The notes under the pieces are model-generated. The model was not told the DNA's origin, ran no database searches, and saw only the letters and a program-made list of their open reading frames with translations. Positions 20,389 to 64,000 of a stretch of DNA of 64,000 nucleotides are shown here, in pieces; the stretch's first letter is position 1; every line of letters begins with the position of its first letter. Both the position numbers and the translations under genes were made by a program. Location: the sequence record MZ311864.1. One strand, given 5' to 3'. The DNA is from Escherichia phage vB_EcoM_LNA4.

Positions 20389-20862
20389 TTAAATCCTCGC
20401 TTTGTTATTTACAATAGTGGAGATAACCGACTGATTAACTCCGTATAACCTTGCTAACGCTCTCGTTCCACGATCCCTTGAATACGGAACATATGCATCT
20501 CTGATCTCAGCCACTTGTAAATCTGTAAGCTTATGATGAGGATGCTCCTCATTCTTAACAGGCTTCAAAAGTCCGGTCTCTGAGGCATGTTCCATATTCT
20601 CTTTTACGGTTGACCATTCGAGATTATCAACATGGTTGTTCTCTTTGTTACCGTCCTTGTGATTAACAAAGGGTTTGTCATCAGGGTTGGGAATATACTG
20701 CATTGCTACCAGTCTGTGAACAAGAAAGTTCCTAATCTTCCCATCTATAGTTGTATGAACCTTCATGTACCCATTTTTAAGACGGGTTTGTTTTATGACA
20801 TTGCCCGTCTTTACCCTGGTAACAACCTTTCCGTCAACACTAACAACGAACAGGCTGTTCAT
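20389..20862 (-). CDS. HNH homing endonuclease
   Basis: HRLVA...NHKDGNKENNHVDNLEW HNH core; sits beside the DNA polymerase gene. Confidence 0.65.
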   Translation of the reverse strand: MNSLFVVSVDGKVVTRVKTGNVIKQTRLKNGYMKVHTTIDGKIRNFLVHRLVAMQYIPNPDDKPFVNHKDGNKENNHVDNLEWSTVKENMEHASETGLLKPVKNEEHPHHKLTDLQVAEIRDAYVPYSRDRGTRALARLYGVNQSVISTIVNNKARI

Positions 20863-40067: not shown

Positions 40068-40125
40068 TGAGTTTATCCTCGTTTTGTTTGGTATGCACAA
40101 AGATTAACAGCCTCCGAAGAGGCTG

Positions 40126-40815
40126 TCAAATGTTTTTCGCAGGTTTTTTAGATGATCCTCGGTTGTAGGGTATTCCTCCCCACTCCATGTTCTCAATTAT
40201 ATATCCATTGAAGCATGTCTCATCCCCACACTCGTGCTGTGTTTTTGTCAGGAATGTTATGTAATTTCGATCTTCTGTTACCATGTGTACACTGTACATT
40301 TCCCTGAACCTGTCACATCGCAAGATAGTTCCGGGGATGCTTACCTTATCCCTTGAAGGTTTGTAATAATTAGCCCGATCCTGGATAGACAGGTACGCAC
40401 CAAGACAGGCGGCCTTCAGAGAGCAAGAGACCTTCAGATTATCAAAATCACCCCCGCTGATATACCACAGCAGGAGGGGTGGAGGACAATCCTCAAACGC
40501 AACACCCGCCCATTCACCGAAGGGGAATATTCCCCTTTCGATAAAATTGAGGTGCCTGCGCTGTGTGTCTGTCTCCACATCAACATAACTTCTTTTCTGC
40601 TTCAGGTCTATGCTTCTGTCGTAACTCTCCTCTCCCAACAAAGGTAAAGACCTTTTAAAGTAGTCTTCAGCAGCAAATTCAGGACTGTAGCTCTCCGAAC
40701 CAAGGGAGATAACAGAGGCATAAGCCCATTCATCTCCACTGTTGATGCAGAGTTTAAGCTCATAAAACCCAAGCTCATGTTGTTGACGATACAGAATCCA
40801 GCGATCTACAGACAC
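40126..40815 (-). CDS. hypothetical protein
   Basis: 229-aa ORF. Confidence 0.45.
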   Translation of the reverse strand: MSVDRWILYRQQHELGFYELKLCINSGDEWAYASVISLGSESYSPEFAAEDYFKRSLPLLGEESYDRSIDLKQKRSYVDVETDTQRRHLNFIERGIFPFGEWAGVAFEDCPPPLLLWYISGGDFDNLKVSCSLKAACLGAYLSIQDRANYYKPSRDKVSIPGTILRCDRFREMYSVHMVTEDRNYITFLTKTQHECGDETCFNGYIIENMEWGGIPYNRGSSKKPAKNI

Positions 40816-51827: not shown

Positions 51828-52033
51828 GGTACTCGATCACTTTTTCGATTTAGGAATCGTATTTTTTCTACACCGTTCAAAAAATTTTTCTAGGTAGAGA
51901 TCGGGTTCTCGATCGATTTTTCAAAATCGAGATCGTATTTTTTCTCGCTATCGAAAAAATTTTCGCGCCCGGTTCTCGATCGACTTTTCAGTTTCAAAAA
52001 CGTATTTTTTCTATACACGCGAAAAAATTTTTT
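51828..52033. repeat. three tandem direct repeats of about 65 bp (iteron-like)
   Basis: GGT(A/T)CTCGATC..TTTTTC....CGTATTTTTTCT......AAAAAATTTT repeated three times. Confidence 0.7.
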
Positions 52034-52408
52034 GGGATCAATAATTTTCTCACACACGCACACGCGATGTCAAGATAAATTTTTATGTTGAATGGGAAGC
52101 ATTCTCATTTAGCTTTTTGAATGATAATCATTCTCGTTTGCAGAATGACGGGCACCCCCGGTGTTTTGTACTCCGGTTTCAATGTTCCCGCTATGTCATA
52201 ATAATAGCATAGCCAGCCCCAGGATCAAGCGGCTTTACAAATCTTTACAAATCTCAAAAGTCCGAACTACCGGCGATTCACCTTCCGACCTGGCACCCGC
52301 GCCCGGTACGTTAGCCCCGCCTTTTCGCCGTGGGGTGGCGTTTTCTCTTCTGTCTGATAAATATAGCCCAGGGCCGCACGGATTGCAAGCCCCAGGACAA
52401 AATATTTT

Positions 52409-52600
52409 TTAGTCTTCCCGGCTATCCCATAACACCGCGCCGGACTCACTCACTGCCTTTGTGCCATAGTAAAACCCGGACACGCTCGCACGTTCTGCAA
52501 ACGGCAAAGGAACGATCCTAACCTGGGGCGCTCCGCGCTCACTCTCCCAGGTGTACAGGGTTACCATTGTTTCGCTTGCAACTACTTTCCCGTTTGCCAT
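52409..52600 (-). CDS. hypothetical protein (early-type gene on minus strand)
   Basis: 63 aa; GAGAGGTAAACGAAATG signature as in plus-strand early genes; TTGCAT..TATAT promoter-like upstream. Confidence 0.45.
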   Translation of the reverse strand: MANGKVVASETMVTLYTWESERGAPQVRIVPLPFAERASVSGFYYGTKAVSESGAVLWDSRED

Positions 52601-52703
52601 TTCGTTTACCTCTCTTGTGTGTGTCCTTATATAGTACACGATCCCCGCCGGGATGCAACCACACCGGGCAAAAAGATTTTTAAAATATTTGCATCCAGGG
52701 GTA

Positions 52704-52732
52704 TTGACGGTAATTAGTAAAGCGTTTACTAT
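52704..52732 (+). promoter_or_regulatory. sigma70-like promoter
   Basis: TTGACG-17 bp-TACTAT. Confidence 0.55.
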
Positions 52733-52782
52733 TCATCTCATCAGGGCGACACACCGCCGCCCACACTCAAAAGGTAAAGCAA

Positions 52783-53313
52783 ATGGACACTATCGAAACT
52801 TTCAACTACTCTTCAAACGGCATTGATTTTACTGTTAACGTTGTTAACTTTAATGAGTTTACCGGGTTCGCGGATCAATGGGAAATGACCGACGATCACG
52901 AAGGTGGGGTAACGGTTCAAAATCCGCAAGCCTGCCGAAACTCTTACAAGTACGCGATCCCGCTTCAATACAGCTTGAAAGAAAGGATCGCCAACCTGAT
53001 AAGCCAGGGTGATGAGAATCCATCGGCTAACGCTTACAAGGCCGCACAAGAGGCATTAGAGCGCGATTTAAACGCTAGTGATTATGGTTTCGTGGTAACT
53101 GCTACCGCAAACGGGATCACGCTCCTGGACGGCGAAACAATGGGGTGTAGTTTCGATTATTCATATGATGATAATGAAACGTTGATCGACGCTGCAAAAG
53201 ATGTTTACAAGGAAAACGGGATCGACGCCGAAGCCCTGGAAGCTGCAAAGAAAGCAGGCGCGGATCTGCTGTCTAATATCGACGGCCTGAAAAATATTTT
53301 AAAAGTAGCTTGA
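52783..53313 (+). CDS. acidic hypothetical protein
   Basis: 176 aa, Asp/Glu-rich; AAAGGTAAA-type SD. Confidence 0.55.
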   Translation: MDTIETFNYSSNGIDFTVNVVNFNEFTGFADQWEMTDDHEGGVTVQNPQACRNSYKYAIPLQYSLKERIANLISQGDENPSANAYKAAQEALERDLNASDYGFVVTATANGITLLDGETMGCSFDYSYDDNETLIDAAKDVYKENGIDAEALEAAKKAGADLLSNIDGLKNILKVA

Positions 53314-53339
53314 TCACCAGGTTCTGATCGGTTATCTTA
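53311..53339 (+). promoter_or_regulatory. sigma70-like promoter
   Basis: TTGATC-17 bp-TATCTT, then hairpin and SD. Confidence 0.45.
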
Positions 53340-53346
53340 CTAACAA

Positions 53347-53365
53347 GCCGGGGACGCTCCCCGGC
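53347..53365 (+). repeat. GC-rich hairpin (GCCGGGG-N-CCCCGGC family)
   Basis: GCCGGGGAcgcTCCCCGGC about 20 nt upstream of ATG. Confidence 0.7.
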
Positions 53366-53386
53366 ACTAACGAAAGGTAAAACAGA

Positions 53387-53683
53387 ATGAAAATTTCCGC
53401 TAACAAACAATTGATCGGCACTGTTAAAAATTATGTCAGGAATCCGTATGAGTTCGGCGGGTATCCGAAAATTTTGATCATGCGTGATGGCGGTTGCCTT
53501 TGTTCAAAATGCGCCCGTGAAAATTTCCCGCGCCTGCTGGAAGAGTTAAGGGATGAATGCGATCCGGCCTGGATGCCTGCCGGGGTAGATGTTTATTGGG
53601 AAGGGGCGGATCTACCGTGTGATCATTGTAACACCCCGATCCCTAGCGCCTATGGCGATCCGGAAGATGACACCGAAGAATAA
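53387..53683 (+). CDS. hypothetical Cys-containing protein
   Basis: 98-aa ORF with promoter/hairpin/SD. Confidence 0.5.
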   Translation: MKISANKQLIGTVKNYVRNPYEFGGYPKILIMRDGGCLCSKCARENFPRLLEELRDECDPAWMPAGVDVYWEGADLPCDHCNTPIPSAYGDPEDDTEE

Positions 53684-53692
53684 AATTAATTG

Positions 53693-53722
53693 TTGACGCT
53701 GGCTAATGTCTGGGGCTATAAT
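53693..53722 (+). promoter_or_regulatory. sigma70-like promoter
   Basis: TTGACG-17/18 bp-(C)TATAAT. Confidence 0.55.
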
Positions 53723-53773
53723 CTCCGGACATTGACAAGCGAAACAAACAACCACACTAAACGAGGTTACACC

Positions 53774-54103
53774 ATGAATAACTATTTCAATTCCCGCGCC
53801 CTGGCTCGTACTGCTGCAAAATCAAACGGTGGCAAAGTGATCGACAACGGCACCGCCGCACCTACTGGTAAACGTTGGCAAGTGATCCCCGGCGTTATGG
53901 TTGAAGCAATCCAGGACACCGCCGATCAACGTGCTGAAATGGAAAGCGCCCCGATTGTTACGCTGGAAGTAAAAACAGGTTATCGCAACCGTAAAGCGGT
54001 GCGTGTCTCTTATGTACACGATGCAAACGGCAAGCCGATCCCAGTGATGCACAAACGATCCCAGGTTGCCGCCCGGTTAGCTGCTCATATGGCGCGTAGC
54101 TGA
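53774..54103 (+). CDS. hypothetical protein
   Basis: 109 aa from ATG after ACGAGGT SD, downstream of promoter. Confidence 0.5.
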   Translation: MNNYFNSRALARTAAKSNGGKVIDNGTAAPTGKRWQVIPGVMVEAIQDTADQRAEMESAPIVTLEVKTGYRNRKAVRVSYVHDANGKPIPVMHKRSQVAARLAAHMARS

Positions 54104-54204
54104 TGACCTGGGGGCAAATGGTTAGCGATCCTTTCTTGTGTGTGATGGGGATCATTCTGATCGGCGTGATGATAAAAATACTTCTCACACTGCCGAAAAT
54201 ATAA

Positions 54205-54234
54205 TTGACAAGCGCCGGGAATCCGGCGCATAAT
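54205..54234 (+). promoter_or_regulatory. sigma70-like promoter
   Basis: TTGACA-18 bp-CATAAT; spacer holds a CGCCGGgaatCCGGCG palindrome. Confidence 0.55.
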
Positions 54235-54264
54235 ACCCAAACCAAAACAAACGAGGTAAACGAA

Positions 54265-54462
54265 ATGGCAAAGGCTCCACGTGTTAATAAATGGCTTTAT
54301 GAAATCATCGTACAGGAAAGAACTTGTAACGGTTGGGAAGATTCTTGCGCCGAGGCAAATTGGTCTGATGCGGTAGCAACAAAGAAAGATTATCGCCGCA
54401 ACGGGTACGAAGCCCGGATCATTGAACGCCGCACACCTAACCCGGATTATGTTGCAAAATAA
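54265..54462 (+). CDS. hypothetical protein
   Basis: 65 aa from ATG after ACGAGGTAAACGAA. Confidence 0.5.
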   Translation: MAKAPRVNKWLYEIIVQERTCNGWEDSCAEANWSDAVATKKDYRRNGYEARIIERRTPNPDYVAK

Positions 54463-54464
54463 AT

Positions 54465-54493
54465 TTGCAATCCTAAGCTAGATCGATTACATT
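54465..54493 (+). promoter_or_regulatory. sigma70-like promoter
   Basis: TTGCAA-17 bp-TACATT. Confidence 0.45.
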
Positions 54494-54502
54494 ATAAATC
54501 AA

Positions 54503-54521
54503 GGCGGGAATAGTTCCCGCC
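54503..54521 (+). repeat. GC-rich hairpin
   Basis: GGCGGGAAtagTTCCCGCC upstream of AAAAGGTAATACAAAATG. Confidence 0.65.
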
Positions 54522-54542
54522 ACACTGAAAAGGTAATACAAA

Positions 54543-54836
54543 ATGACTACCACAAACAAAACCACTACCGCCCCAGCAAAATTTTTCCTCGCTCGTATCT
54601 ATTGCATGTATGACGGTAAAGAGTTCCCAGCCGTGGATCTGATTGTTGATCACTCCCTGGAAGATGCAACCAACGAAGCCGAAAACCGTTGCGCCGCCGC
54701 TCACTATTCCTTTTCCGATATCGACGAAGTGAACGAAAGCGGTTATTGGTCTGATTGTGGCGCTCATGTTGTACGCGTTAAATCTGTAACAGAAATTAGC
54801 GCCGCCACCTATGAAGAGATAAAAAATCTCCTGTAA
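54543..54836 (+). CDS. hypothetical protein
   Basis: 97-aa ORF. Confidence 0.5.
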   Translation: MTTTNKTTTAPAKFFLARIYCMYDGKEFPAVDLIVDHSLEDATNEAENRCAAAHYSFSDIDEVNESGYWSDCGAHVVRVKSVTEISAATYEEIKNLL

Positions 54837-54839
54837 GTA

Positions 54840-54868
54840 TTGACACCCCAGCGAGTAAAGCGGATAAT
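54840..54868 (+). promoter_or_regulatory. sigma70-like promoter
   Basis: TTGACA-17 bp-GATAAT. Confidence 0.6.
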
Positions 54869-54877
54869 TCTATTCAA

Positions 54878-54895
54878 GCCGGGACGGTTCCCGGC
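54878..54895 (+). repeat. GC-rich hairpin
   Basis: GCCGGGAcggtTCCCGGC. Confidence 0.65.
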
Positions 54896-54915
54896 ACTGA
54901 CCGAAGGTAAAGAAA

Positions 54916-55314
54916 ATGGCAAAGTTTAAAACCTCAATCAATCTTTATGACGCTGTGAACCGCCTGAAAGAAGTTTCACGCGAAAATCAAACCGGGGATT
55001 TTTTCGTGGTTGTTGACTCCTTTGATTTTGGGCGTGATGTTAACGGAAACACGATCAACAAATACCGCGCCACGCTCCACCGTGGGGATCTGCTATCCGT
55101 GCAAAATGGTTATACTGGTTTCGGGGTCACCGTCCTGGAATCACCACGCCGCCGCGAACAATCCCACAATGAAGGGCAAAGCGCCGCGCTTTACTGGTTG
55201 GAAAAAATCGGTTATGATCTGGCTTATGAGTCTATGACTTATGCGCCCCACACCAAAAAGCAAGGCTATCGCCACGTTTACCGGGTAACGAACAATTATT
55301 TAAAGGGGCTTTAA
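54916..55314 (+). CDS. hypothetical protein
   Basis: 132-aa ORF. Confidence 0.5.
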   Translation: MAKFKTSINLYDAVNRLKEVSRENQTGDFFVVVDSFDFGRDVNGNTINKYRATLHRGDLLSVQNGYTGFGVTVLESPRRREQSHNEGQSAALYWLEKIGYDLAYESMTYAPHTKKQGYRHVYRVTNNYLKGL

Positions 55315-55315
55315 C

Positions 55316-55459
55316 ATGTTTAATGTCGTGGTGATTAATAAGAAAACGGGTAAAAAAGTGGTGATGAATCGATCCCCGTTGTCACACGGTGAAGCCTGCG
55401 CTATGCTGTCAAAAATCACTCGTTACCCGTGGCGGGTTGAAAAAATAGAAAGTATTTAA
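55316..55459 (+). CDS. small hypothetical protein (47 aa)
   Basis: ATG 1 nt after previous stop; not in ORF track (short). Confidence 0.35.
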   Translation: MFNVVVINKKTGKKVVMNRSPLSHGEACAMLSKITRYPWRVEKIESI

Positions 55460-55471
55460 AGGCGGTGTGAA

Positions 55472-55657
55472 ATGGTTGTAAGCATGGATAACGGGCAAGT
55501 ATTGACGATCTTTAATTCTGCAAGCCGCACAATTGAGGACGTAAAGCAAGAGGCAAGCCAACGGATCGACAACCTAAAGATCCCCGGCAAGCTGTTAGAT
55601 GATAGCCTGAAAGTGATCTCCGCTTTCGATTCTTTTGGGAAAGAAATCACTAAATAG
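55472..55657 (+). CDS. hypothetical protein
   Basis: 61-aa ORF. Confidence 0.45.
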   Translation: MVVSMDNGQVLTIFNSASRTIEDVKQEASQRIDNLKIPGKLLDDSLKVISAFDSFGKEITK

Positions 55658-55660
55658 TTG

Positions 55661-55689
55661 TTGACTCTTAATAGATGGGGCTTTAAGAT
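55661..55689 (+). promoter_or_regulatory. sigma70-like promoter
   Basis: TTGACT-17 bp-TAAGAT. Confidence 0.5.
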
Positions 55690-55753
55690 AAGCCCTATCA
55701 AGTAAGAGAAATAACCCGGCAATAATGCCAAACCAAACAAAAGGTAAATTATC

Positions 55754-56320
55754 ATGAATAACAAAATCACTTTCAACGATCAAGACGTAGCCGTTTTTAA
55801 CTTCCTGAAAGAAAAAGGGATTGAATTTAAAGCAGTACACGGCGGAGTCAATAATGATCCTAGTTGGGAAGCGGATCTGTTTTTCGTGTCTTTTGAGCGT
55901 AACGGCAAAATGTACCGTTCAGAATTTAAAACTGGTACAGGTCACCGCGTAGGCCGTCATAGTGGCTTAACCTCTCAGGATAAAAAAGAGCTTGATAAAG
56001 TTGGCGCACAAATCGCCATCGTAGATCAAAAGCACTGGACACGCGACGATTACAAGCGTAATGATAATAAAGCTATGTCTTTTGGTTATCGTGTTTACGT
56101 TGCGACACCTTGCGCCGCAAACGTGCTTTACTGCCTGCTGTCTGATATGTCTTTTGGTGATGAAACTCATGCTGATTTTTGCGCTAATATGGGCTATGAT
56201 GAGGACAGCCGCAAAGGTTTAGAAATGTATCTCGAATGTCAGAAAGTAGGACAGGAGATCCGCAAAATCTTTACAGGTGAGGAACTGGAAGCCCTGCGCG
56301 AAATGTTAGAGGATTATTAA
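55754..56320 (+). CDS. hypothetical protein
   Basis: 188-aa ORF with AAAAGGTAAATTATC SD. Confidence 0.5.
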   Translation: MNNKITFNDQDVAVFNFLKEKGIEFKAVHGGVNNDPSWEADLFFVSFERNGKMYRSEFKTGTGHRVGRHSGLTSQDKKELDKVGAQIAIVDQKHWTRDDYKRNDNKAMSFGYRVYVATPCAANVLYCLLSDMSFGDETHADFCANMGYDEDSRKGLEMYLECQKVGQEIRKIFTGEELEALREMLEDY

Positions 56321-56323
56321 ACC

Positions 56324-56671
56324 GTGTTTAAAATCCTGTTTTTGGTGGCTGCTGCTGCTATCTACTGGAAGATCCCCGCTAGACTATGGCGGGGAGTTCT
56401 CTGGATTTACTACGAATACAGGATCGGCAAAGTGTATCACTATATAGAATATAAGTTTCACGGGAACCATTACCACACCCGGCGATCCGGGGCATTAAAT
56501 GATCTTGAGGGTAACGGGCTATTGTGTGAGGTGAAAAAGCGAGGCGGCAAAATCACTTATCACAAAGAAGGAACAAAAGAGCAAATCACCGAGATCATAG
56601 AGTGGCGAGCTAATGAGCTAGCAGAAAAACAAGGCCGGATCATTCAACATGCACACAACAAACGAAAATAA
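56324..56671 (+). CDS. hypothetical protein with N-terminal hydrophobic segment
   Basis: 115-aa ORF, GTG start. Confidence 0.45.
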   Translation: MFKILFLVAAAAIYWKIPARLWRGVLWIYYEYRIGKVYHYIEYKFHGNHYHTRRSGALNDLEGNGLLCEVKKRGGKITYHKEGTKEQITEIIEWRANELAEKQGRIIQHAHNKRK

Positions 56672-56685
56672 AACGAGGGTTTAAA

Positions 56686-56889
56686 ATGCGAAATATTGAG
56701 AAGATGACAAGCAAGCGTGATCGCCTGGCTTACGGTGAAGTAAACGAGCGCCGCCAACGTAACGACAAACTACACAAGCCGGAAAGGGTCGCTAAAACCT
56801 GGACGCCTGACCGTTATGATCCAAACCTCAATAAAAGGTTAGCGGATCGCAAACGTGCTTTACAGTGGCAAGCCGTACAAAATGACTAA
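56686..56889 (+). CDS. small basic protein
   Basis: 67 aa, Arg/Lys-rich. Confidence 0.45.
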   Translation: MRNIEKMTSKRDRLAYGEVNERRQRNDKLHKPERVAKTWTPDRYDPNLNKRLADRKRALQWQAVQND

Positions 56890-56894
56890 ACAAA

Positions 56895-56921
56895 GGCCGG
56901 GATAATTTCCCGGCTTTTTTC
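56895..56921 (+). terminator. rho-independent terminator
   Basis: GGCCGGGAtaatTTCCCGGC then TTTTTT. Confidence 0.75.
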
Positions 56922-57138
56922 TATGCAAAAAAGTGAATTTAAAGAGTTCTCAGGCAGGCAATGCACTTGCCAGGGTTCGACGTTGAAGCGCTTAGAGAGG
57001 CTTACAGGAGCTTTAAAGCGGTATCACGGCACCGCGCCACGCTCAAAAGGCCTTAAATTTAGTCACAAGGTGAAACTATTTGCATATGATTGAATGCTTA
57101 TGCAAAACAGTGAATATTGTAAAGATTTAATAATTTTC

Positions 57139-57166
57139 TTGCGTCCTGGCGTGAATCTGTTAATAT
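57139..57166 (+). promoter_or_regulatory. sigma70-like promoter
   Basis: TTGCGT-16 bp-TAATAT. Confidence 0.5.
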
Positions 57167-57218
57167 TTAACACGTAGGGCGACATAGTGAAGCCCACACA
57201 ATCAAAAGGTAAATTATC

Positions 57219-57509
57219 ATGTGTAAAGTAATGAATGCTCTGACTAAAAACGCCCTAGAAAACAAATACCTGGGCAAAATGGTTTATCATAATTATGGTC
57301 AAATCGGGTTCGGTGTGGTCACCGGGATCGATGACCGTGATCCCACAAAATTACGTTTACGCGTGAAGTTTACCCGCAATAATACCCCGGCGCATATCCA
57401 GAAATATGACAACCGCGCGGATCGTGTTCGTTGCCTCCTGCCTCAATCGGTCACCGTGTCCCGTGTGCGTTATGAGGATTACAACCGCACAAACCAGATC
57501 AAGAAATAG
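57219..57509 (+). CDS. hypothetical protein
   Basis: 96-aa ORF. Confidence 0.5.
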   Translation: MCKVMNALTKNALENKYLGKMVYHNYGQIGFGVVTGIDDRDPTKLRLRVKFTRNNTPAHIQKYDNRADRVRCLLPQSVTVSRVRYEDYNRTNQIKK

Positions 57510-57510
57510 C

Positions 57511-57538
57511 TTGCAATCTGCGCCGCTTATGGTATCTT
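57511..57538 (+). promoter_or_regulatory. sigma70-like promoter
   Basis: TTGCAA-16 bp-TATCTT. Confidence 0.5.
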
Positions 57539-57585
57539 TATTCATAGGCGGCAATAATGCCACCACTTAAAGAGAGGTAAACAAA

Positions 57586-57687
57586 ATGTTAGATTATACA
57601 AACCTTTGGTGTGTGGCTGCTCTTGTATCTTTCATCGTTGCGGCTTGCTCTGTGGTCGCTATCCATATTATTTTAGAGGATCGTTAA
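57586..57687 (+). CDS. small hydrophobic peptide (33 aa)
   Basis: GAGAGGTAAACAAAATG then a single hydrophobic helix; not in ORF track (short). Confidence 0.35.
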   Translation: MLDYTNLWCVAALVSFIVAACSVVAIHIILEDR

Positions 57688-57688
57688 T

Positions 57689-57907
57689 ATGTTCGGGTTT
57701 ATCGTTATGGCCTGCCATATCTCGCTAACTTCAATGAAGTTAGATTGTAGCTGGGATGTTAAAAAAACATTCCAAACAGAACAGGCTTGCAACGTGTACG
57801 AAAACGAATACACGCTAGGCAAAGGCGAGCAGATCGGGGTCTGTGATGAGTTAGATCCTGGCGTTAAAGAAGGCGATAAACGCCCTATTCTCACCCTCAA
57901 AAAGTAA
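57689..57907 (+). CDS. small secreted/membrane Cys-containing protein
   Basis: 72 aa with N-terminal hydrophobic segment. Confidence 0.45.
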   Translation: MFGFIVMACHISLTSMKLDCSWDVKKTFQTEQACNVYENEYTLGKGEQIGVCDELDPGVKEGDKRPILTLKK

Positions 57908-57916
57908 GGGTTTACC

Positions 57917-58102
57917 ATGTTTGAAGTATTCGCCGGAATGTGTTTTTATGCCGCTATGGGCTTGCAACGTTGCGATGATTTCATCGTTGAATCATACGAC
58001 GATCAATTAACCTGTGAGATCGTAGCCAATGACTACCGCACGGATCGCCGCTGGATTAATCCCGCTTGCATCCCATCGCCGGAAGTTGAACCAATGCCAT
58101 AA
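57917..58102 (+). CDS. hypothetical protein
   Basis: 61-aa ORF. Confidence 0.4.
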   Translation: MFEVFAGMCFYAAMGLQRCDDFIVESYDDQLTCEIVANDYRTDRRWINPACIPSPEVEPMP

Positions 58103-58109
58103 AATAAAT

Positions 58110-58138
58110 TTGACAACGGGGAACCGTTGATCAATAAT
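58110..58138 (+). promoter_or_regulatory. sigma70-like promoter
   Basis: TTGACA-17 bp-AATAAT. Confidence 0.55.
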
Positions 58139-58148
58139 TACCAGACAA

Positions 58149-58169
58149 GGCCGGGAGCGGTTCCCGGTC
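58149..58169 (+). repeat. GC-rich hairpin
   Basis: GGCCGGGAgcggTTCCCGGTC. Confidence 0.65.
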
Positions 58170-58186
58170 ACCTGGTGAGGTGAATC

Positions 58187-58303
58187 ATGAAAGGTTACCA
58201 AGTAGAATACACTACCGAAAACCCGGTTTACACCGAAGCGCGGATCATGTGTCGTCTGGTGTGGTTTTTCGTGATCTTCCTGCTGTTATTATCTTTATTC
58301 TAA
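58187..58303 (+). CDS. small membrane peptide (38 aa)
   Basis: Promoter, hairpin, GGTGAGGTGAATCATG; C-terminal hydrophobic helix. Confidence 0.35.
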   Translation: MKGYQVEYTTENPVYTEARIMCRLVWFFVIFLLLLSLF

Positions 58304-58318
58304 AACGAGGTTTTAAAA

Positions 58319-58660
58319 ATGGAACTGGCAAATAAATTTTTCTTCCTGGCTGGCGTATCTGACAAAGCAAAATGTGATTTTCGTCGTTTCGATGATAAAA
58401 CATTGTTGCGTTTTTGTCATGTTAATGACACTGTAAACGCTGATCGCCTGGATATCATGATCCGCACGGAAAACAGCATTGATCACGCTTCACAAAGACC
58501 TTGCAAGGCGCATTATGTATCTTATCAGCTTGAAAGTGTGAAGGGTTATGTAAAACAGGCTGATAGCCTGCCGATCCGTGATGCTCTGGACGTTTTCGCG
58601 GTAGTTGTTGAGATTGTTAATGATGTTTTTCCGGTTGACTCTGAAAATCAGATCGGCTAA
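58319..58660 (+). CDS. hypothetical protein
   Basis: 113-aa ORF. Confidence 0.45.
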   Translation: MELANKFFFLAGVSDKAKCDFRRFDDKTLLRFCHVNDTVNADRLDIMIRTENSIDHASQRPCKAHYVSYQLESVKGYVKQADSLPIRDALDVFAVVVEIVNDVFPVDSENQIG

Positions 58661-58664
58661 AGTA
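58636..58664 (+). promoter_or_regulatory. sigma70-like promoter
   Basis: TTGACT-17 bp-TAAAGT overlapping end of previous gene. Confidence 0.4.
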
Positions 58665-58673
58665 TTCTAACAG

Positions 58674-58694
58674 GCCGGGGATTGTCCCCGGTCA
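58674..58694 (+). repeat. GC-rich hairpin
   Basis: GGCCGGGGAttgTCCCCGGTC. Confidence 0.7.
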
Positions 58695-58713
58695 CAATAG
58701 AAAGGTAAATATT

Positions 58714-58947
58714 ATGGCACGTTACACTAAAACCGTGGATATCTGGGACGCTCAAACCAACGTTGCAAAATTGCAGCCGGGGCAATGGGTAGAGGCTGGC
58801 AAAGGCGGTGATCGCGGGATCTTCTGTGGTGTAAAACGCTCTGGATCTGTGGTTGTTGCCTGGAAGAATAACGCAAGCAACCATAAGCGCGGCGGGTATC
58901 GTGGCTATATTTCCGATCTGTTTTCTTATGCTAAAGTGTGGGCTTGA
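58714..58947 (+). CDS. hypothetical protein
   Basis: 77-aa ORF. Confidence 0.5.
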   Translation: MARYTKTVDIWDAQTNVAKLQPGQWVEAGKGGDRGIFCGVKRSGSVVVAWKNNASNHKRGGYRGYISDLFSYAKVWA

Positions 58948-58949
58948 TT

Positions 58950-59282
58950 ATGAAAAATAAAAATGTTTATTGGTCTTCCTCGTGCGGTCGCCTTTGTCTG
59001 ATTTTCCGTGACCGTGACCAGGTAGAAGAGATCGCCCACTCTGGGGACTGTGAAGCCTCCACCGTTGAAGCCTTGCCCTATTTCCGGGACGGCTTACAGT
59101 TTAGCGCCTACACCGATCAAATGATCCGGGATTACCTGGCCGAAACCGGGATCGAGCGTGAAGGGGTAGACGGGATCGACAACATGGATCGCCACACCCT
59201 GGAAATGTACCTGTTATGGATCGCGGCTTGCGATATGCTGGACGTGTTCAACATTGGCGATGATTACGGGGAAGATGAATAA
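58950..59282 (+). CDS. hypothetical acidic protein
   Basis: 110 aa from ATG (ORF track starts at upstream GTG). Confidence 0.45.
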   Translation: MKNKNVYWSSSCGRLCLIFRDRDQVEEIAHSGDCEASTVEALPYFRDGLQFSAYTDQMIRDYLAETGIEREGVDGIDNMDRHTLEMYLLWIAACDMLDVFNIGDDYGEDE

Positions 59283-59288
59283 AAACGC

Positions 59289-59317
59289 TTGCAAGCCAGG
59301 TGCGGATCGGTTAATAT
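59289..59317 (+). promoter_or_regulatory. sigma70-like promoter
   Basis: TTGCAA-17 bp-TAATAT. Confidence 0.55.
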
Positions 59318-59325
59318 CTTTTTGA

Positions 59326-59347
59326 GGCCGGGGAATACCTCCCCGGC
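59326..59347 (+). repeat. GC-rich hairpin
   Basis: GGCCGGGGAatacctCCCCGGC. Confidence 0.65.
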
Positions 59348-59368
59348 AAGCCAGAAAGGTAAACAAAA

Positions 59369-59758
59369 ATGCAAAATTTCATCACTATCACCAATAACGA
59401 TAAACTGCAATCTCTGATCGGTATCCTTAACGATGTTTCACCGTTTATCGTTAAAAATCTTTACGCACATTTGAAAAATGTTAAACCCGCTATTTGGTCT
59501 GCTCATTGCTATGACCAGGACGAAAGCGCGGCGGCATACATGATCGAAATGTTAAAAGATAGTATGCAACTTTGTTTATCTCAAAGCGTTATTAATGAAG
59601 TTGATAGCCGTTTATCTCTGGCTATTGAATACCAGGTGCAAGCAATGTATAATCAGTTAGACATTGAAGAGCAGCAAGATCAGGATTCATTCTGGGATCG
59701 TGCTGATGCTCAAAGCGCCTTTGATGACCGTTTAGCAATGTATGCTAACGAATACTAA
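59369..59758 (+). CDS. hypothetical acidic protein
   Basis: 129-aa ORF. Confidence 0.5.
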   Translation: MQNFITITNNDKLQSLIGILNDVSPFIVKNLYAHLKNVKPAIWSAHCYDQDESAAAYMIEMLKDSMQLCLSQSVINEVDSRLSLAIEYQVQAMYNQLDIEEQQDQDSFWDRADAQSAFDDRLAMYANEY

Positions 59759-59767
59759 ACAAAACAA

Positions 59768-59787
59768 GGCCGGGGACGTTCCCCGGC
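59768..59787 (+). repeat. GC-rich hairpin
   Basis: GGCCGGGGAcgtTCCCCGGC. Confidence 0.7.
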
Positions 59788-59808
59788 ATAATCTGAAAGG
59801 TAAAGCAA

Positions 59809-60033
59809 ATGTTAAAGAATCAAACCGGGCAAACTGAATTTTTACGCAACCTTATCGCTGGTGAAAAGGCTGTATGGTTCTGTGAAGGTGCAAACGTAGA
59901 TCCGGAAATGCGGAAAATGACCGCCACCGTGTGCAAGGCGAAACTAGGCTTTAAAATCCGTCAATCAAAAGCCCTGATCGTTACTCCTGATTCTATCCCG
60001 CAAGCAATCATCATTATTGAGCGTATATCATGA
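59809..60033 (+). CDS. hypothetical protein
   Basis: 74-aa ORF. Confidence 0.45.
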   Translation: MLKNQTGQTEFLRNLIAGEKAVWFCEGANVDPEMRKMTATVCKAKLGFKIRQSKALIVTPDSIPQAIIIIERIS

Positions 60034-60257
60034 AAAAAGTAATTTTTGATAACAAGAAAAACACGGTAACCGCTCAAAAGGTCGGGGAGTATATCGAACT
60101 TTCGGATCTGTATAGTGACGCGCCGATCCGCTTGTCACCTGCTGAATATAAAAATGCTGATTTGGTTAAACATGTTGTCGCTATGGAGTTCGAATTTTTC
60201 GAATATCTAGCCTCTTTTGAGGATGATTTTAATAGTGATGGGCTTTACGGCGCATGA
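60030..60257 (+). CDS. hypothetical acidic protein
   Basis: 75-aa ORF, ATGA overlap with previous gene. Confidence 0.45.
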   Translation: MKKVIFDNKKNTVTAQKVGEYIELSDLYSDAPIRLSPAEYKNADLVKHVVAMEFEFFEYLASFEDDFNSDGLYGA

Positions 60258-60403
60258 TCATTTACGTCAACGTTTTAAACGGGAATCGTTACCGCTGGCG
60301 CGGTTCCCGTGTCCTGGCTCTGATGTCTGGTGAATGGGTTCAAAGTCAGCACTTACGCCCCGCCGATCTCTCACATTTTCCGTTTATAGGTATCAAAGAA
60401 TGA
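60254..60403 (+). CDS. small hypothetical protein (49 aa)
   Basis: ATGA overlaps at both ends; not in ORF track (short). Confidence 0.3.
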   Translation: MIIYVNVLNGNRYRWRGSRVLALMSGEWVQSQHLRPADLSHFPFIGIKE

Positions 60404-60738
60404 AATATGAAATCACCCCGGAAGATATCAAAACACGCGCCCTTGATAGCGCCCGTTACACCTTAACAAAGCGTGAAGGCCTGCAACTATTTTCAATCTG
60501 TTTTATTCATCCTGATGATCCTGATTTTCAATCTGATCCGGTTGAGTTCTGGGCTAGTAGCTGGGAAACGGCTTATGATGAGCTGATGAATAATGTAAAC
60601 ACTTTCGAATCTTACGGCCTGTCAAGTTTTAGCCAGACAGATCGCCCCCTGGAGGATGAGAACGTTAGAGCGTGGATCAACCACTACAACGCCCTTTATA
60701 ACCTCGTGTTTATTCATGGGGAGAGTAAAGAAGTGTAA
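60400..60738 (+). CDS. hypothetical protein
   Basis: 112 aa from ATG overlapping upstream stop. Confidence 0.45.
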   Translation: MKYEITPEDIKTRALDSARYTLTKREGLQLFSICFIHPDDPDFQSDPVEFWASSWETAYDELMNNVNTFESYGLSSFSQTDRPLEDENVRAWINHYNALYNLVFIHGESKEV

Positions 60739-60745
60739 AGAGCTA

Positions 60746-60774
60746 TTGACGTGGTGATCTGCCTATAGTAATAT
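60746..60774 (+). promoter_or_regulatory. sigma70-like promoter
   Basis: TTGACG-17 bp-TAATAT. Confidence 0.55.
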
Positions 60775-60830
60775 TTATCTCGTAGGGCAAACAAACGAAA
60801 TCACACAAAACAGACTAAGAGGTAAATCAA

Positions 60831-61196
60831 ATGTTAAACGCTAAAACTGTTGCTCATGTTGGTTGGGATTCAAACGCGTATGAGGGTGAGTGGTGCGAAG
60901 ATTACCGCCGTACTGAATGGGCTTACAAAATCCAGATCGAACTGGTAGACGGTTCACGCTTTTACCTTGATCAATCCTTACTGACTTCTGAAACTCATGA
61001 TTTTGAAGAAATCAAAGCTATTCAGGATCGCCGTGTAGCTCGCATTGAAAAACATTTGGCCGCTGGCGGTTCACTGAATGAAAAACACTGGTACGAAACC
61101 GATCCGGCTTATGGCTCTGAAGCTTATCAGCGCCTGGATGATATGGGAGAGTTTAAAGCCCGTGAAGAAAAAGAGTTTCAACTGACCGGACGTTAA
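60831..61196 (+). CDS. hypothetical protein
   Basis: 121-aa ORF. Confidence 0.5.
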   Translation: MLNAKTVAHVGWDSNAYEGEWCEDYRRTEWAYKIQIELVDGSRFYLDQSLLTSETHDFEEIKAIQDRRVARIEKHLAAGGSLNEKHWYETDPAYGSEAYQRLDDMGEFKAREEKEFQLTGR

Positions 61197-61212
61197 CAGA
61201 TTAAAAGGCGCT

Positions 61213-61241
61213 TGCAATGGTGAGCGCTTTTTGATAAATTA
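61213..61241 (+). promoter_or_regulatory. sigma70-like promoter
   Basis: TTGCAA-17 bp-TAAATT. Confidence 0.45.
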
Positions 61242-61272
61242 ATGTCTCACCAAACAAATGAGGTAAACGGCA

Positions 61273-61596
61273 ATGACTAAAACAGAATTTTTCGCAATCA
61301 TCACCGATCATCTGAAAAGACTTAACGGTCAATTTAACGCTTTCGGTGAATATGTCGCCTTTGACGTTCCAAAATACACCGCCGCCGATCTTGCTCCTTA
61401 TGAGTTCCACGAAGATCCGGAAAATTACGCTAAATGGAAAGCAGAAAACCCGGATTATCCCTGGGTAGCTCATGCGTCAGGCTATACTATGAAAAATTGC
61501 TGGTTAGTCGGCCTTATCAATCATCGCTCATATGAAGCCGCCACCAAACAAGCGAAGATTTTCGCACGTTGGATCGCTGAATACCAAACCAAATAA
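61273..61596 (+). CDS. hypothetical protein
   Basis: 107-aa ORF. Confidence 0.5.
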   Translation: MTKTEFFAIITDHLKRLNGQFNAFGEYVAFDVPKYTAADLAPYEFHEDPENYAKWKAENPDYPWVAHASGYTMKNCWLVGLINHRSYEAATKQAKIFARWIAEYQTK

Positions 61597-61604
61597 ACCC
61601 ACCG

Positions 61605-61621
61605 GGGGCGCTAGTCGCCCC
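61605..61621 (+). repeat. GC-rich hairpin
   Basis: GGGGCGctagtCGCCCC upstream of GAGAGGTAAACAAAATG. Confidence 0.6.
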
Positions 61622-61645
61622 GCTATCATATGAGAGGTAAACAAA

Positions 61646-62011
61646 ATGGATCTTAAGAAAATCAATCTTTTAGCCCTGAAAAAGGGTGATATGCTGTTTC
61701 GTGGGTCTTTGTGTGAAGTCCTGGAAATATCAGCGCCGTTTATGCGTGGCTATGGTTATGATAACCATTATTACAAGGCCGAAACGGTAGCGATCAAATG
61801 TCAAGCCGTATATGATTACGATGTTAACTATTCAAAAGAAAGCGGCAAGCCATTAACGCCCCGTGAATATGTTTTTGATTATCCGATTGAATCACAAGTG
61901 ATGATCGTTACATCTGGCGAAACGGTCACCGTGACAAGCGCTACCGGGAATTTTGACGATAAAACAGGTCATTATCTGTTACCCGGTCAAACAATTAATG
62001 TTATTGAGTGA
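61646..62011 (+). CDS. hypothetical protein
   Basis: 121-aa ORF. Confidence 0.5.
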   Translation: MDLKKINLLALKKGDMLFRGSLCEVLEISAPFMRGYGYDNHYYKAETVAIKCQAVYDYDVNYSKESGKPLTPREYVFDYPIESQVMIVTSGETVTVTSATGNFDDKTGHYLLPGQTINVIE

Positions 62012-62017
62012 TGACAA

Positions 62018-62281
62018 GTGATTAACCTTGTTTATCATGTGAGCAAAACCAACATTAGCCGGGCTATCTGCCTGGCTTGCTTGTTTGCTGTTTTGTCAAA
62101 TGTTTTTTACGGTTGGCTGGCCTGCCTTGTGTTAAGTGACGCAACCGCCCAGACAGTTAACACCATGATCGATGTTTTGCAGCTTGCTTTATATTGTGGT
62201 GTAAAGCTGTACAGATTTAAACGCCTGGACCGTTACGATCTACCTTTCATCATTGGCGGATCACTGGCTATTATGTTGTAA
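62018..62281 (+). CDS. membrane protein
   Basis: 87 aa, GTG start, hydrophobic helices; last gene before terminator. Confidence 0.45.
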   Translation: MINLVYHVSKTNISRAICLACLFAVLSNVFYGWLACLVLSDATAQTVNTMIDVLQLALYCGVKLYRFKRLDRYDLPFIIGGSLAIML

Positions 62282-62285
62282 TCTA

Positions 62286-62308
62286 GGCCGGGATTATTCC
62301 CGGCTTTT
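62286..62308 (+). terminator. rho-independent terminator closing the early block
   Basis: GGCCGGGAttatTCCCGGC then TTTT. Confidence 0.7.
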
Positions 62309-62428
62309 GCATATCATAACCCACACCAAACCACAACCCAAAATCTTTACCCGCTTTTATGTTGGTTGCAATATCGCAACTGAGAATTATTCTCACCAAT
62401 CCCGTTGGCAATTATGCAATAAAGTGAA

Positions 62429-62448
62429 TTTAAAGAGATCTCTTTAAA
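62429..62448. repeat. 20-bp perfect palindrome (operator-like)
   Basis: TTTAAAGAGATCTCTTTAAA is its own reverse complement. Confidence 0.8.
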
Positions 62449-63406
62449 GACATACAACGGCAAGCCTAACAGATAAACCCTCTCAAAACGCGTTATATTG
62501 CGTTTAATCGTGTATCTTTACCCGCCTTTGACTCACTCACACCCCAAAAATGATAACGCAGGTTATCAAGTGAATAAACACCGTGTTTTTATGCAAATTG
62601 AGTGAATACGAAGCAAAAACCCTGAAATGATAACTTTTCTCATCTAACCCTTTGTGTGAACTGCCTTTTTTGAGCATAGAAATCATCTTTTGTCAAATAA
62701 AATATCGTTCGCGTAATCGTGGGGAGTGGCGCGAGCGGAGCGAGCGACACAATAACACGAAGGGTAACTCAAACGATAATAAATATCGTTTTCGTTCGCG
62801 TTATCGTGGCTCGTTAGCGCTATTGTCGCATAGCGATTCAATGTTACACATTGAACCCGTAAACGGGCAAGGCTAAGCGTTAACAGACAGGATGACTAGA
62901 ATGATGAATAATTAACAATGCAACTATTACATAGTTGAAGTATTTTATAACCTCGCCACGATAACACCGATTAGCTGATCGCTAATCGCCCTCGTGTTAT
63001 TGTGTCGCCAGGTTATGAAGATCAAAGGCATTTAATTAGCCTTTAATGGTTGACAAACCATGATTAATAGAACTGTAAACCAGGCCGCTGGCCTGCTAAT
63101 TGCTGGTTTTCTTGAGCATGAAAAGGTGTGCGAAGCTGGCTAACTGTCAAGTGTTTTATTGATAGGAAAAGTCTATTAAAGCCAGGCGTAGCAAGGGCTA
63201 AACGAGAATTGTTATCATGTGGCTAAATGCTCAAGATAGGTAGAATTGCTAAACACATATTTCCCTCTGTGTCAAGCTTTTTGTGGCAAATTTACAAAAT
63301 ATTTTCCATTTGAGAATGGTTTTCATTTCGAAACTGAAATCGAAATCGTATTCAGAATGATTATCATTTGCATTCTCATCGACAAAACACCCCACAAAGT
63401 GAATAA

Positions 63407-63425
63407 TAACAGGTGTAAACTGTCA
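63407..63425. repeat. 19-bp direct repeat, copy 1
   Basis: TAACAGGTGTAAACTGTCA. Confidence 0.8.
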
Positions 63426-63598
63426 TGCTGGTAACATGTAGCAGGCTATTGGTTGCTGTCTGGTATGGTTCACTGATGCAATGATAACATATGTGACTAT
63501 ATGGCCTGTTGCCCGGTGACCTCTGGTGCGTATAACGTGTATTATGTTAAATAGAGACATTCACACAAATATAACCAAGTCAATAGCAAATCGTGCTG

Positions 63599-63617
63599 TA
63601 ACAGGTGTAAACTGTCA
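63599..63617. repeat. 19-bp direct repeat, copy 2
   Basis: TAACAGGTGTAAACTGTCA, identical to copy at 63407. Confidence 0.8.
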
Positions 63618-64000
63618 CATTGCTAATAGTTGCACTTGTAATCATTAGTTTCGTTGCGAAATCATCATGCAATCATCGTGCCAAGAACTCGATGGGGTCT
63701 CGTGGTCAGACCTCTCAGATATTTTGTAAAGATCCTTGACAACCCGGAGGGGCTGTGATTGTCCGTCTAACACATCAGACATAGAGACAACAGATATTTT
63801 CGTCCCCAAGAGATACAGACCAGGGGCCTCTTTTATTTCCCTCCGGGCGGGGGAGGGGGTGGGTTTTAGTTAGTGATGAGCCACTGACAAGGCGATATGC
63901 TTATGCTGTAAACATGTTGTGTGGTATGTGTTTATGGAATGGCGTTTTATAGACATGACAATTTGTTAATGAAATGTACACTATGGTAGGCAGGGGCGGT

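Follow-up and report, generated by a model that had tools for sequence, protein, structure and literature searches.

Promoter early stem-loops (PeSLs) have so far been reported only for T4-like phages, namely RB49/phi1, T4/PST and KVP40/nt-1 (Arbiol et al. 2010, PMC2839356; Comeau et al. 2014, PMC4122927). Each consists of an AT-rich stretch, a sigma-70-type promoter, a stem-loop built of G and C runs with G-T pairs, and a Shine-Dalgarno (SD) sequence with an ATG at the 3' end; the stem-loop may lie in the promoter spacer, overlap either the -35 or the -10 box, or come behind the latter. PeSLs cluster among small genes of unknown function in hyperplastic or variable regions, where close relatives differ by indels and replacements whose junctions fall in the cassettes, so that two cassettes in one phage correspond to one chimeric cassette in another. 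In the view of the authors, the stem-loop terminates or attenuates transcription, one example from RB49 having cut downstream lacZ expression about as much as rrnB T1, and crossovers in PeSL mini-circles were mapped in or beside the stem-loop (PMC2839356). Here we analyze a family of GC-rich hairpins in a 64,000-nucleotide (nt) stretch of Escherichia phage vB_EcoM_LNA4 (MZ311864.1; the window is this whole stretch). We consider it very probable that these hairpins belong to PeSL-type cassettes in which the hairpin is selected for its structure.

By sequence, the window is Seunavirus DNA (Vequintavirinae, rV5-like myoviruses), as are Enterobacter phage EC152, Cronobacter phage GAP31, coliphage 4MG and Salmonella phage PVP-SE1, to which the region 53000-62400 is 99.3%, 96.6%, 91.7% and ~85% identical, respectively. 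The hairpins sit in an array of about 28 small open reading frames (ORFs) of 33 to 188 amino acids (aa) on the + strand, at 52.8-62.3 kb, and gene content in this array varies even against the 99%-identical EC152. None of the 10 array ORFs tested matched Pfam, and their PHROG families are of unknown function, bar one doubtful "DNA ligase" label. We infer that the array is an early one. The original prediction had listed ten near-identical stem-loops here, and a generic hairpin scan together with the sequence recovered all of them:

53347-53365, + strand: hairpin GCCGGGGA cgc TCCCCGGC
54503-54521, + strand: hairpin GGCGGGAA tag TTCCCGCC, a stem variant
54878-54895, + strand: hairpin GCCGGGA cggt TCCCGGC
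58149-58169, + strand: hairpin GGCCGGGA gcggt TCCCGGTC
58673-58693, + strand: hairpin GGCCGGGGA ttg TCCCCGGTC
59327-59347, + strand: hairpin GCCGGGGA atacc TCCCCGGC
59769-59787, + strand: hairpin GCCGGGGA cgt TCCCCGGC
61605-61621, + strand: hairpin GGGGCG ctagt CGCCCC, with a stem sequence unlike the family
56892-56918 and 62285-62306, + strand: the remaining two of the ten, hairpins with a U tract

The pattern under which they had been grouped, GCCGGGG-N3-6-CCCCGGC, matches two sites in its literal form, but the looser core GCCGGG-N4-9-CCCGGY matches eight, against 0.02 expected (100 shuffles, none of which reached 14 strand-matches), and all eight core-pattern sites fall within 53.3-62.3 kb. 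Outside the array, the other 53 kb of the window and EC152 positions 10-110 kb, about 150 kb in all, had no member of the sequence family. A covariance model built from nine hairpins of equal length placed every strong match in the window (E<0.01) at 53.3-59.8 kb, including the terminator at 56.9 kb, and gave no strong match in 100 kb of the remaining EC152 genome. A search of 52000-64000 against Rfam 15 returned no match on either strand at E values up to 1.

Several particulars of the original prediction stood. Only two of the ten hairpins, at 56892 and 62285, carry a U tract, although a third U-tract terminator, at 61203-61232, had been overlooked. The eight U-less stems end 17-24 nt upstream of the ATG (21, 21, 20, 17, 20, 21, 21 and 24 nt), within the 15-25 nt given earlier. 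When the predicted leaders were folded, all eight hairpins were present in the minimum free energy structure (about -12 to -17 kcal/mol), and both SD and ATG were unpaired in the centroid folds of all eight. The placement of the hairpins between promoter and SD holds at six of the eight U-less sites, but not at 59769 and 61605, which lack a convincing promoter. As to interpretation, what survives is a nonrandom hairpin family ahead of the ribosome sites of promoter-driven small genes, with the proposed functions supported only in part. It had escaped notice that the hairpins are one module of composite cassettes, that the cassettes coincide with gene-swap junctions, and that PeSLs are their published counterpart.

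The array contains 15 intergenic regions of 49-329 nt, of which 13 have a sigma-70-like promoter and 13 a stable hairpin. The order of modules is upstream stop codon, AT-rich stretch, promoter, hairpin, A-rich leader, SD and ATG, and a typical cassette is 50-95 nt long. The AT-rich stretch, judged by eye, lies before the -35 box and beside the upstream stop codon (taaAATAAATTTGACA, taaAATTAATTGTTGACG, AAAATATAATTGACA or taaATTTGCAA). At the sequence level, the promoters have the form TTGACA/TTGCAA, 16-18 nt, TAnnnT, and four match 11 of the 12 consensus positions. An SD of the form AAGGTAAA or GAGGTAAA stands 5-8 nt ahead of the ATG in all cassettes. The thirteen G-run/C-run hairpins have energies of -10 to -20 kcal/mol and G·U pairs on the sense strand. 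Five of them, further to those predicted, overlap promoters, with z scores of -3.4 to -6.7 against shuffles. Hairpin position relative to the promoter thus varies: six follow the -10 box, one (54212) lies in the spacer, three (53704, 55674 and 57522) hold the -10 box in the loop, and one (61203, listed below with the terminators) holds the -35 box in the loop.

53310..53389, + strand: cassette with promoter TTGATC-17-TATCTT at 53310-53338, hairpin 53347-53365, SD AAAGGTAAA, ATG 53387
53693..53776, + strand: cassette with promoter TTGACG-18-TATAAT and an 11-12 bp hairpin at ~53704-53735 whose loop contains the -10 box and whose stem has two + strand G·U pairs (-15.1 kcal/mol, z -3.9)
54205..54267, + strand: cassette with hairpin GCGCCGG gaat CCGGCGC at 54212-54229, within the 18-nt spacer of TTGACA...CATAAT (-15.6 kcal/mol, z -4.3)
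54465..54545, + strand: cassette with promoter TTGCAA-17-TACATT, hairpin 54503-54521 at the predicted transcript start, SD, ATG 54543 (z -4.4)
54840..54918, + strand: cassette with promoter TTGACA-17-GATAAT, hairpin 54878-54895 at the predicted transcript start, SD, ATG 54916
55661..55756, + strand: cassette with promoter TTGACT-17-TAAGAT and a 10-bp hairpin at 55674-55699 whose loop is the -10 box (-16.6 kcal/mol, z -4.9)
57511..57588, + strand: cassette with promoter TTGCAA-16-TATCTT, a 10-11 bp main hairpin at 57522-57552 with the -10 box in its loop (-17.3 kcal/mol, z -3.4), and a small second hairpin at 57547-57564
58110..58189, + strand: cassette with promoter TTGACA-17-AATAAT, hairpin 58149-58169 in which one G·U pair is conserved, SD GAGGTGA, ATG 58187
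58635..58716, + strand: cassette with promoter TTGACT-17-TAAAGT, which lies within the gene upstream, then hairpin 58673-58693 (a single G·U pair), SD, ATG 58714
59289..59371, + strand: cassette with promoter TTGCAA-17-TAATAT, hairpin 59327-59347 at the predicted transcript start, SD, ATG 59369 (z -3.3)
59759..59811, + strand: cassette with no clear promoter (best 5/12): stop codon, 9-10 nt, hairpin 59769-59787, SD, ATG 59809
61597..61648, + strand: cassette with no clear promoter, hairpin 61605-61621, SD GAGAGGTAAA, ATG 61646 (z only -0.5 for the fold of the whole leader)

The fold of cassette 60746 was not significant (z -0.3), and inspection of cassette 57140 revealed only a weak, mismatched inverted repeat.

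The spacing between promoter and hairpin is narrow where the hairpin follows the -10 box. In six cassettes of the window, the stem starts 8-10 nt past this box. Ten phages gave 40 distinct cassettes of this type; in 30 of them, the hairpin is preceded by a promoter with 8 or more of the 12 consensus positions, and in 29 of these 30 the gap from -10 box to stem is 7-10 nt, with a mode of 9. Since transcription usually starts 7-8 nt after the -10 box, the transcript probably begins 1-4 unpaired nt before the stem, which would place the hairpin at its 5' end.

The likeness to PeSLs extends to module composition, the range of stem-loop positions, the concentration in a variable region rich in small genes of unknown function, and the kind of rearrangement seen between close relatives. 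The differences are as follows. The hosts of the published elements are T4-like phages, whereas here they are Vequintavirinae; the hairpin here lies mostly after the -10 box, inside the transcript, whereas in phi1 and RB49 it lies mostly in the spacer and at the -10 box, and in PST the promoter follows the stem-loop; the stems here belong to the family GCCGGGG/GGCGGGA; and the cassettes described here are known from sequence alone.

In a covariance check run across related phages, pairing was kept while stems and loops changed. Loops differ at orthologous sites (cgc/acgcg, ttg/atcgc, atacc/tgg/gcggt and cgt/acg/acat/tcat), and orthologues placed via flanking homology alone had a hairpin of similar energy in every case, despite changes in stem and loop. 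The 53347 site has GCCGGGGA/TCCCCGGC in the window versus GGCGGGAA/TTCCCGCC in KE22. Compensatory changes were found at 58149 (C-G to G-C in FENT2), in the 53704 hairpin (GTC/GAC to GTG/CAC in R7 and PVP-SE1, with a perfect stem in BIS47) and in the 55674 hairpin (GAT/ATC to GGT/ACC among relatives). The 54212 hairpin reads CTGGCGC in PVP-SE1-type phages, which forms a G·U pair on the + strand; the 57522 hairpin is retained in GAP31, 4MG, FENT2 and EspYZU14; the 59769 position is occupied in EspYZU14 by the unrelated stem GCCCCGG/CCGGGGT; and the 61605 stem is kept with differing loops in R7, EspYZU14, FENT2 and BIS47. In a fixed-register alignment of 22 distinct stems, both sides had changed in 6 of 7 pairs, and none of 500 shuffles reached the covariation score. 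A MAFFT alignment of 39 whole leaders was out of structural register and was replaced by the covariance model, the fixed-length alignment and the flank-mapped orthologues; the alignment from the covariance-model search mixes both strands of palindromic matches and was excluded from the pair counts. Conservation of primary sequence was less uniform. The 58110..58189 cassette retains 95-98% identity among phages whose genes share only ~83%, and between the window and PVP-SE1, cassettes and genes are 83.6% versus 83.3% identical overall, typical cassettes reaching ~90%, a modest excess, once a 329-nt gap is left out.

Mismatches revealed a strand bias. Among distinct stems with one internal mismatch, 32 have a G·U versus 8 an A·C on the + strand, and after chance extensions and coding hits were removed by hand, the tally was ~15 G·U versus 2 A·C. 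The bias holds also for the promoter-embedded hairpins, which are present only in read-through transcripts. Because a double-stranded DNA target would give no G·U bias, these results point to a constraint that acts on one strand of sense polarity, most simply RNA.

The cassette design was seen in four genera, Seunavirus (FENT2 and KE22), Mydovirus (BIS47), Henunavirus (Hena1) and Vequintavirus (rV5 itself), with stems that are partly the same. In rV5, the cassettes lie on the coding strand of the equivalent array, and two use GGCGGGAA/TTCCCGCC. A scan of IMG/VR for the exact GGCGGGAA hairpin and its flanks returned five contigs, four of Vequintavirinae type, and the cassette was seen in L015 and L018; the fifth contig is a chance match in GC-rich coding DNA, and the scan gave no sign of identical cassettes in other phage families. 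The rV5 paper lists promoters and terminators only, and we found no description of such hairpins or of PeSLs in rV5-like phages in the literature covered, which did not include the PVP-SE1 genome paper.

Comparison with relatives showed that the cassettes coincide with sites of gene replacement. R7 and PVP-SE1 have one chimeric cassette whose left part corresponds to that at 54465 of the window and whose right part corresponds to that at 54840; the crossover lies in the SD region, and the gene at 54543-54836 is missing. The gene at 58714-58947 shows presence or absence exactly after the cassette at 58635 and is absent in PVP-SE1, and EspYZU14 has lost most of this gene and has the 58635 promoter fused to a hairpin from a different cassette. 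When the window was compared with six relatives, BLAST blocks broke 4-8 nt after start codons (53393, 54272, 59376, 60834 and 61652), and homology resumed at the start of the next cassette or hairpin (53687, 54481, 54871, 59769, 61600 and 62285). By manual tally, 21 of 32 distinct breakpoints fell within 10 nt of a cassette, the rest being mostly tight gene junctions. The repeated cassettes probably serve as homologous crossover sites for gene gain, loss and exchange.

To the observed anatomy, enrichment, sense-strand-biased structural conservation and recombinant junctions, the scheme that we favor adds predicted start positions and a predicted effect on RNA stability. We hold it to be probable, though far from assured, that these are PeSL-type composite cassettes in which the hairpin is a 5' or intercistronic RNA stabilizer and the cassettes are also crossover sites. 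The stem-loop would work as sense-strand RNA. In the U-less subclass, the stem would begin at about +2 to +5 of its own transcript; a hairpin at this 5' terminus would not occlude the ribosome site and may hinder RppH/RNase E decay of the message of the cassette. E. coli mRNAs that have a hairpin only a few nt from the 5' end, together with an open ribosome site, are protected from 5'-end-dependent decay (RppH/RNase E). Such stabilization by 5'-terminal stem-loops was reportedly described for the ompA and papA mRNAs of E. coli by Emory, Bouvet and Belasco in 1992 and by Bricker and Belasco in 1999, both of which PMC3997798 cites. The hairpins described here resemble these stabilizers in being stable, a few nt from the predicted 5' end and next to a single-stranded ribosome site; they differ in that their 5' ends are predicted only and in that the same hairpins also occur without a promoter or inside promoters. 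In read-through transcripts, the same hairpins and those buried in promoters would sit between cistrons, where they could block 3' exonucleases or mildly attenuate. Stable intercistronic stem-loops stop 3' exonucleases and set relative expression within operons (PMC10667835). Like the repetitive extragenic palindromic (REP) elements and other intercistronic stem-loops that govern segmental mRNA stability through selective RNA processing and stabilization, the array hairpins are U-less stable structures between cistrons, which could block 3' exonucleases and shape the relative expression of neighbors; unlike REP elements, to which they have no sequence relation, they are phage-borne and fused to promoters. 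A stem followed by a U tract (56892, 61203 and 62285) would act as a true terminator, and the repeated, conserved cassettes would offer homologous crossover sites for gain, loss and exchange of genes.

Among the four functions put forward in the original prediction, a 5' mRNA-stabilizing hairpin fits best, given the 29 of 30 gaps of 7-10 nt and the open ribosome binding site, but several points weigh against the scheme as a whole. We found no mapped transcript ends for related phages, and the start position is predicted from consensus spacing. The 59769 and 61605 hairpins have no recognizable promoter, and five hairpins lie upstream of the start of their own cassette, so a role at the 5' end cannot be the only function. 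The stems in the covariation count were picked since they fold, and their 100% pairing is in part built in. Two stem "alleles," GCCGGGG and GGCGGGA, carry much of the covariation, and they could have spread by whole-hairpin exchange rather than by stepwise compensation. Since any viable swap should leave its junctions at gene boundaries, the junction data are supportive rather than decisive. Finally, the strong attenuation measured for one RB49 PeSL stem-loop favors a terminator reading (PMC2839356). We see it as evenly balanced whether stabilization rather than attenuation is the main role of the hairpins.

It is conceivable that the U-less hairpins are attenuators or leaky terminators that damp read-through from the many promoters upstream, which would leave each gene chiefly under its own promoter. 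The RB49 PeSLs are credited with such a function, the effect of one of them on lacZ being close to that of rrnB T1 (PMC2839356). In the window, the same stem with a U tract makes up the real terminators of the array, the promoter-less hairpins directly follow stop codons, and the promoter-embedded hairpins are transcribed by read-through only, yet have both compensatory changes and G·U pairs on the sense strand. However, only 0-2 U residues occur within 7 nt after each of the eight U-less stems, and E. coli intrinsic termination requires a U tract. Moreover, six hairpins lie ~5-25 nt into their own transcript, and they are not expected to be efficient terminators, since these would silence the gene that they precede; on balance, we regard attenuation as the chief function as unlikely. 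RNase III-type processing, as in the early region of T7, had been suggested for these intercistronic hairpins of a phage early region, the analogy being the only point in its favor. T7 early RNase III sites are likewise structured RNAs between early genes of a lytic phage, but they are long imperfect duplexes of ~20 bp or more, whereas the hairpins here have stems of 6-10 bp and no longer-range pairing appeared in the folds. RNase III requires a duplex of about two helical turns, and cleavage of polycistronic early RNA at these sites is scarcely credible.

The palindromes could instead matter as DNA only, as homology or structure for recombination (mini-circles, shuffling) or as cruciforms, with no RNA role. 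Recombinant junctions do lie inside or beside hairpins, whole stems have been swapped between orthologous sites, and the PeSL mini-circle crossovers were in or beside the stem-loop (PMC2839356). However, the sense-strand G·U bias of 32 versus 8 is unexpected for a double-stranded target or a two-armed cruciform, loops diverge while pairing stays, and the distances from the -10 box and to the ATG vary little, all of which render an exclusively DNA-level function improbable. A related proposal, which we regard as doubtful, is a hairpin-centered system of gene-cassette exchange, integron-like in logic, that exists independently in rV5-like as well as T4-like phages; the stem-loop, folded in a single-stranded nucleic acid of sense polarity, would be the preferred crossover or cleavage point, releasing promoter-gene mini-circles that carry small host-takeover genes from phage to phage. 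Lastly, the hairpins had been proposed as binding sites for one regulator, which, as a phage or host protein acting at a DNA operator at +1 to +20 or on RNA, would switch the whole early array on or off. The stem GCCGGGG/CCCCGGC recurs with high identity and overlaps the start-site region, a common location of operators. Against this, the loops range from 3 to 7 nt and have no common sequence, unrelated stems (GGGGCG, GCCCCGG, GGGCGGC, GTGGCGG and GCCAGGG) replace it at orthologous or paralogous sites and still pair, and hairpin position ranges from the -35 box to +1. Control by a single regulator is thus very improbable, and the composite cassette with a stabilizing hairpin is the reading that we retain.

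An intrinsic-terminator U tract is present at only three hairpins of the array:

56892..56921, + strand: terminator with family stem AAAGGCCGGGA taatt TCCCGGCTTTT followed by T residues, at the end of the first gene block (-18.2 kcal/mol, z -5.4)
61203..61275, + strand: overlap of terminator and promoter, with hairpin 61203-61232 and a U tract, -35 box TTGCAA in the loop, -10 box TAAATT at 61235-61240, ATG 61273 (-20 kcal/mol, z -6.7)
62285..62310, + strand: terminator with family stem AGGCCGGGA ttat TCCCGGCTT followed by TTG, at the end of the array (-16.4 kcal/mol, z -4.0)

The 62285 terminator is annotated as such in the PVP-SE1 GenBank record, where the stretch examined has three promoters and one terminator annotated. 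Like Rho-independent terminators in general, the array hairpins have a GC-rich stem of 7-11 bp and a short loop after a gene, and these three are full terminators on the same or similar stems; the eight hairpins without a U tract differ from them and lie mostly downstream of a promoter. A scan also flagged four minus-strand sites as terminators, which were rejected: their T-rich tails merely reflect the CAA/A-rich start region of the opposite strand, and a G·U pair in a stem becomes A·C in this orientation. Downstream of both canonical terminators is a 30-nt motif, TATGCAAWAAAGTGAATTTAAAGAGWTCTC (56922-56951 and 62413-62442), which has a partial copy at 57099-57115 and is kept after the orthologous terminators in GAP31, 4MG, R7, FENT2 and BIS47. 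It could be a promoter of a non-sigma-70 (middle or late) type or a protein-binding site.

Some rearrangements in the array have other features. EC152, though 99.9% identical in the rest of this stretch (window 55306-55450), lacks the 47-aa ORF at 55316-55459. Because its junctions lie in two similar SD regions, ATTTAAAGGGG and ATTTAAAGGCG, the data suggest a recent deletion or insertion via short homology without a cassette. EC152 (L001 8640-9131) and GAP31 (L002 9966-10788) have an extra 0.5-0.8 kb just upstream of the 60746 promoter cassette, with small ORFs and a terminator, CCGGGGC ttgttttct GTCCCGG TTTTT; the window (60725-60738) is without this insert. In the equivalent array of rV5 (L013 16600-31000, - strand), several genes are noted in GenBank as like hypothetical proteins of RB49, from which PeSLs were first described, and for GAP31_053 (L002 4555-4782), an insert beside a cassette, a GenBank note likens the product to a cyanophage P-SSM2 protein. 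These notes hint at an exchange of small genes between rV5-like and T4-like myovirus lineages. The rV5 array also has, on the - strand, three copies of another intergenic hairpin, TTTATTTTTA-GATGGCCTTG-actt-CAGGGCCATC-AATAAAGTAAAC, at 20833-20856, 24577-24600 and 25208-25231, with TTGACT spanning the stem-loop junction; this element is a second repeated cassette type in rV5.

The "DNA ligase" label mentioned above belongs to the 98-aa ORF at 53387-53683, which is so called in EC152, BIS47 and PHROG 18452. This ORF has no Pfam match, is much too short to be a ligase, and has CxxC...CxxC motifs; the label is probably a propagated error. Off the array, at 40104-40129 on the - strand, a promoter-like sequence, TTGACAGCCTCttcgGAGGCTGTTAATCT, has a GC hairpin in its spacer. 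Given this location and the opposite orientation to the array, promoter-embedded hairpins may be in use in other parts of the genome too. Past the array, where its + strand genes meet a - strand gene block, lies an ORF-poor zone (62310-64000) that carries a 28-nt direct repeat at 63407 and 63599 and a conserved hairpin, TCCCTCC-GGGCGGG-GGAGGGG, at 63837-63859. Because a direct terminal repeat is annotated in the equivalent zone of Hena1, this zone may hold genome ends, packaging signals or an origin.

For annotation, the anatomy of these cassettes explains why most intergenic hairpins of these genomes should not be called terminators. The cassettes also amount to a compact, naturally tuned set of promoter, 5'-hairpin and ribosome-binding parts, and the covarying stem variants that it includes would be useful for studying the effect of 5' and intercistronic hairpins on mRNA lifetime in infection. 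If the scheme is true, large lytic phages in general would organize and reshuffle their small early genes in this way, each gene bringing along a strong host-type promoter, RNA punctuation and a ribosome site, and the PeSL design would not be peculiar to T4-like phages.

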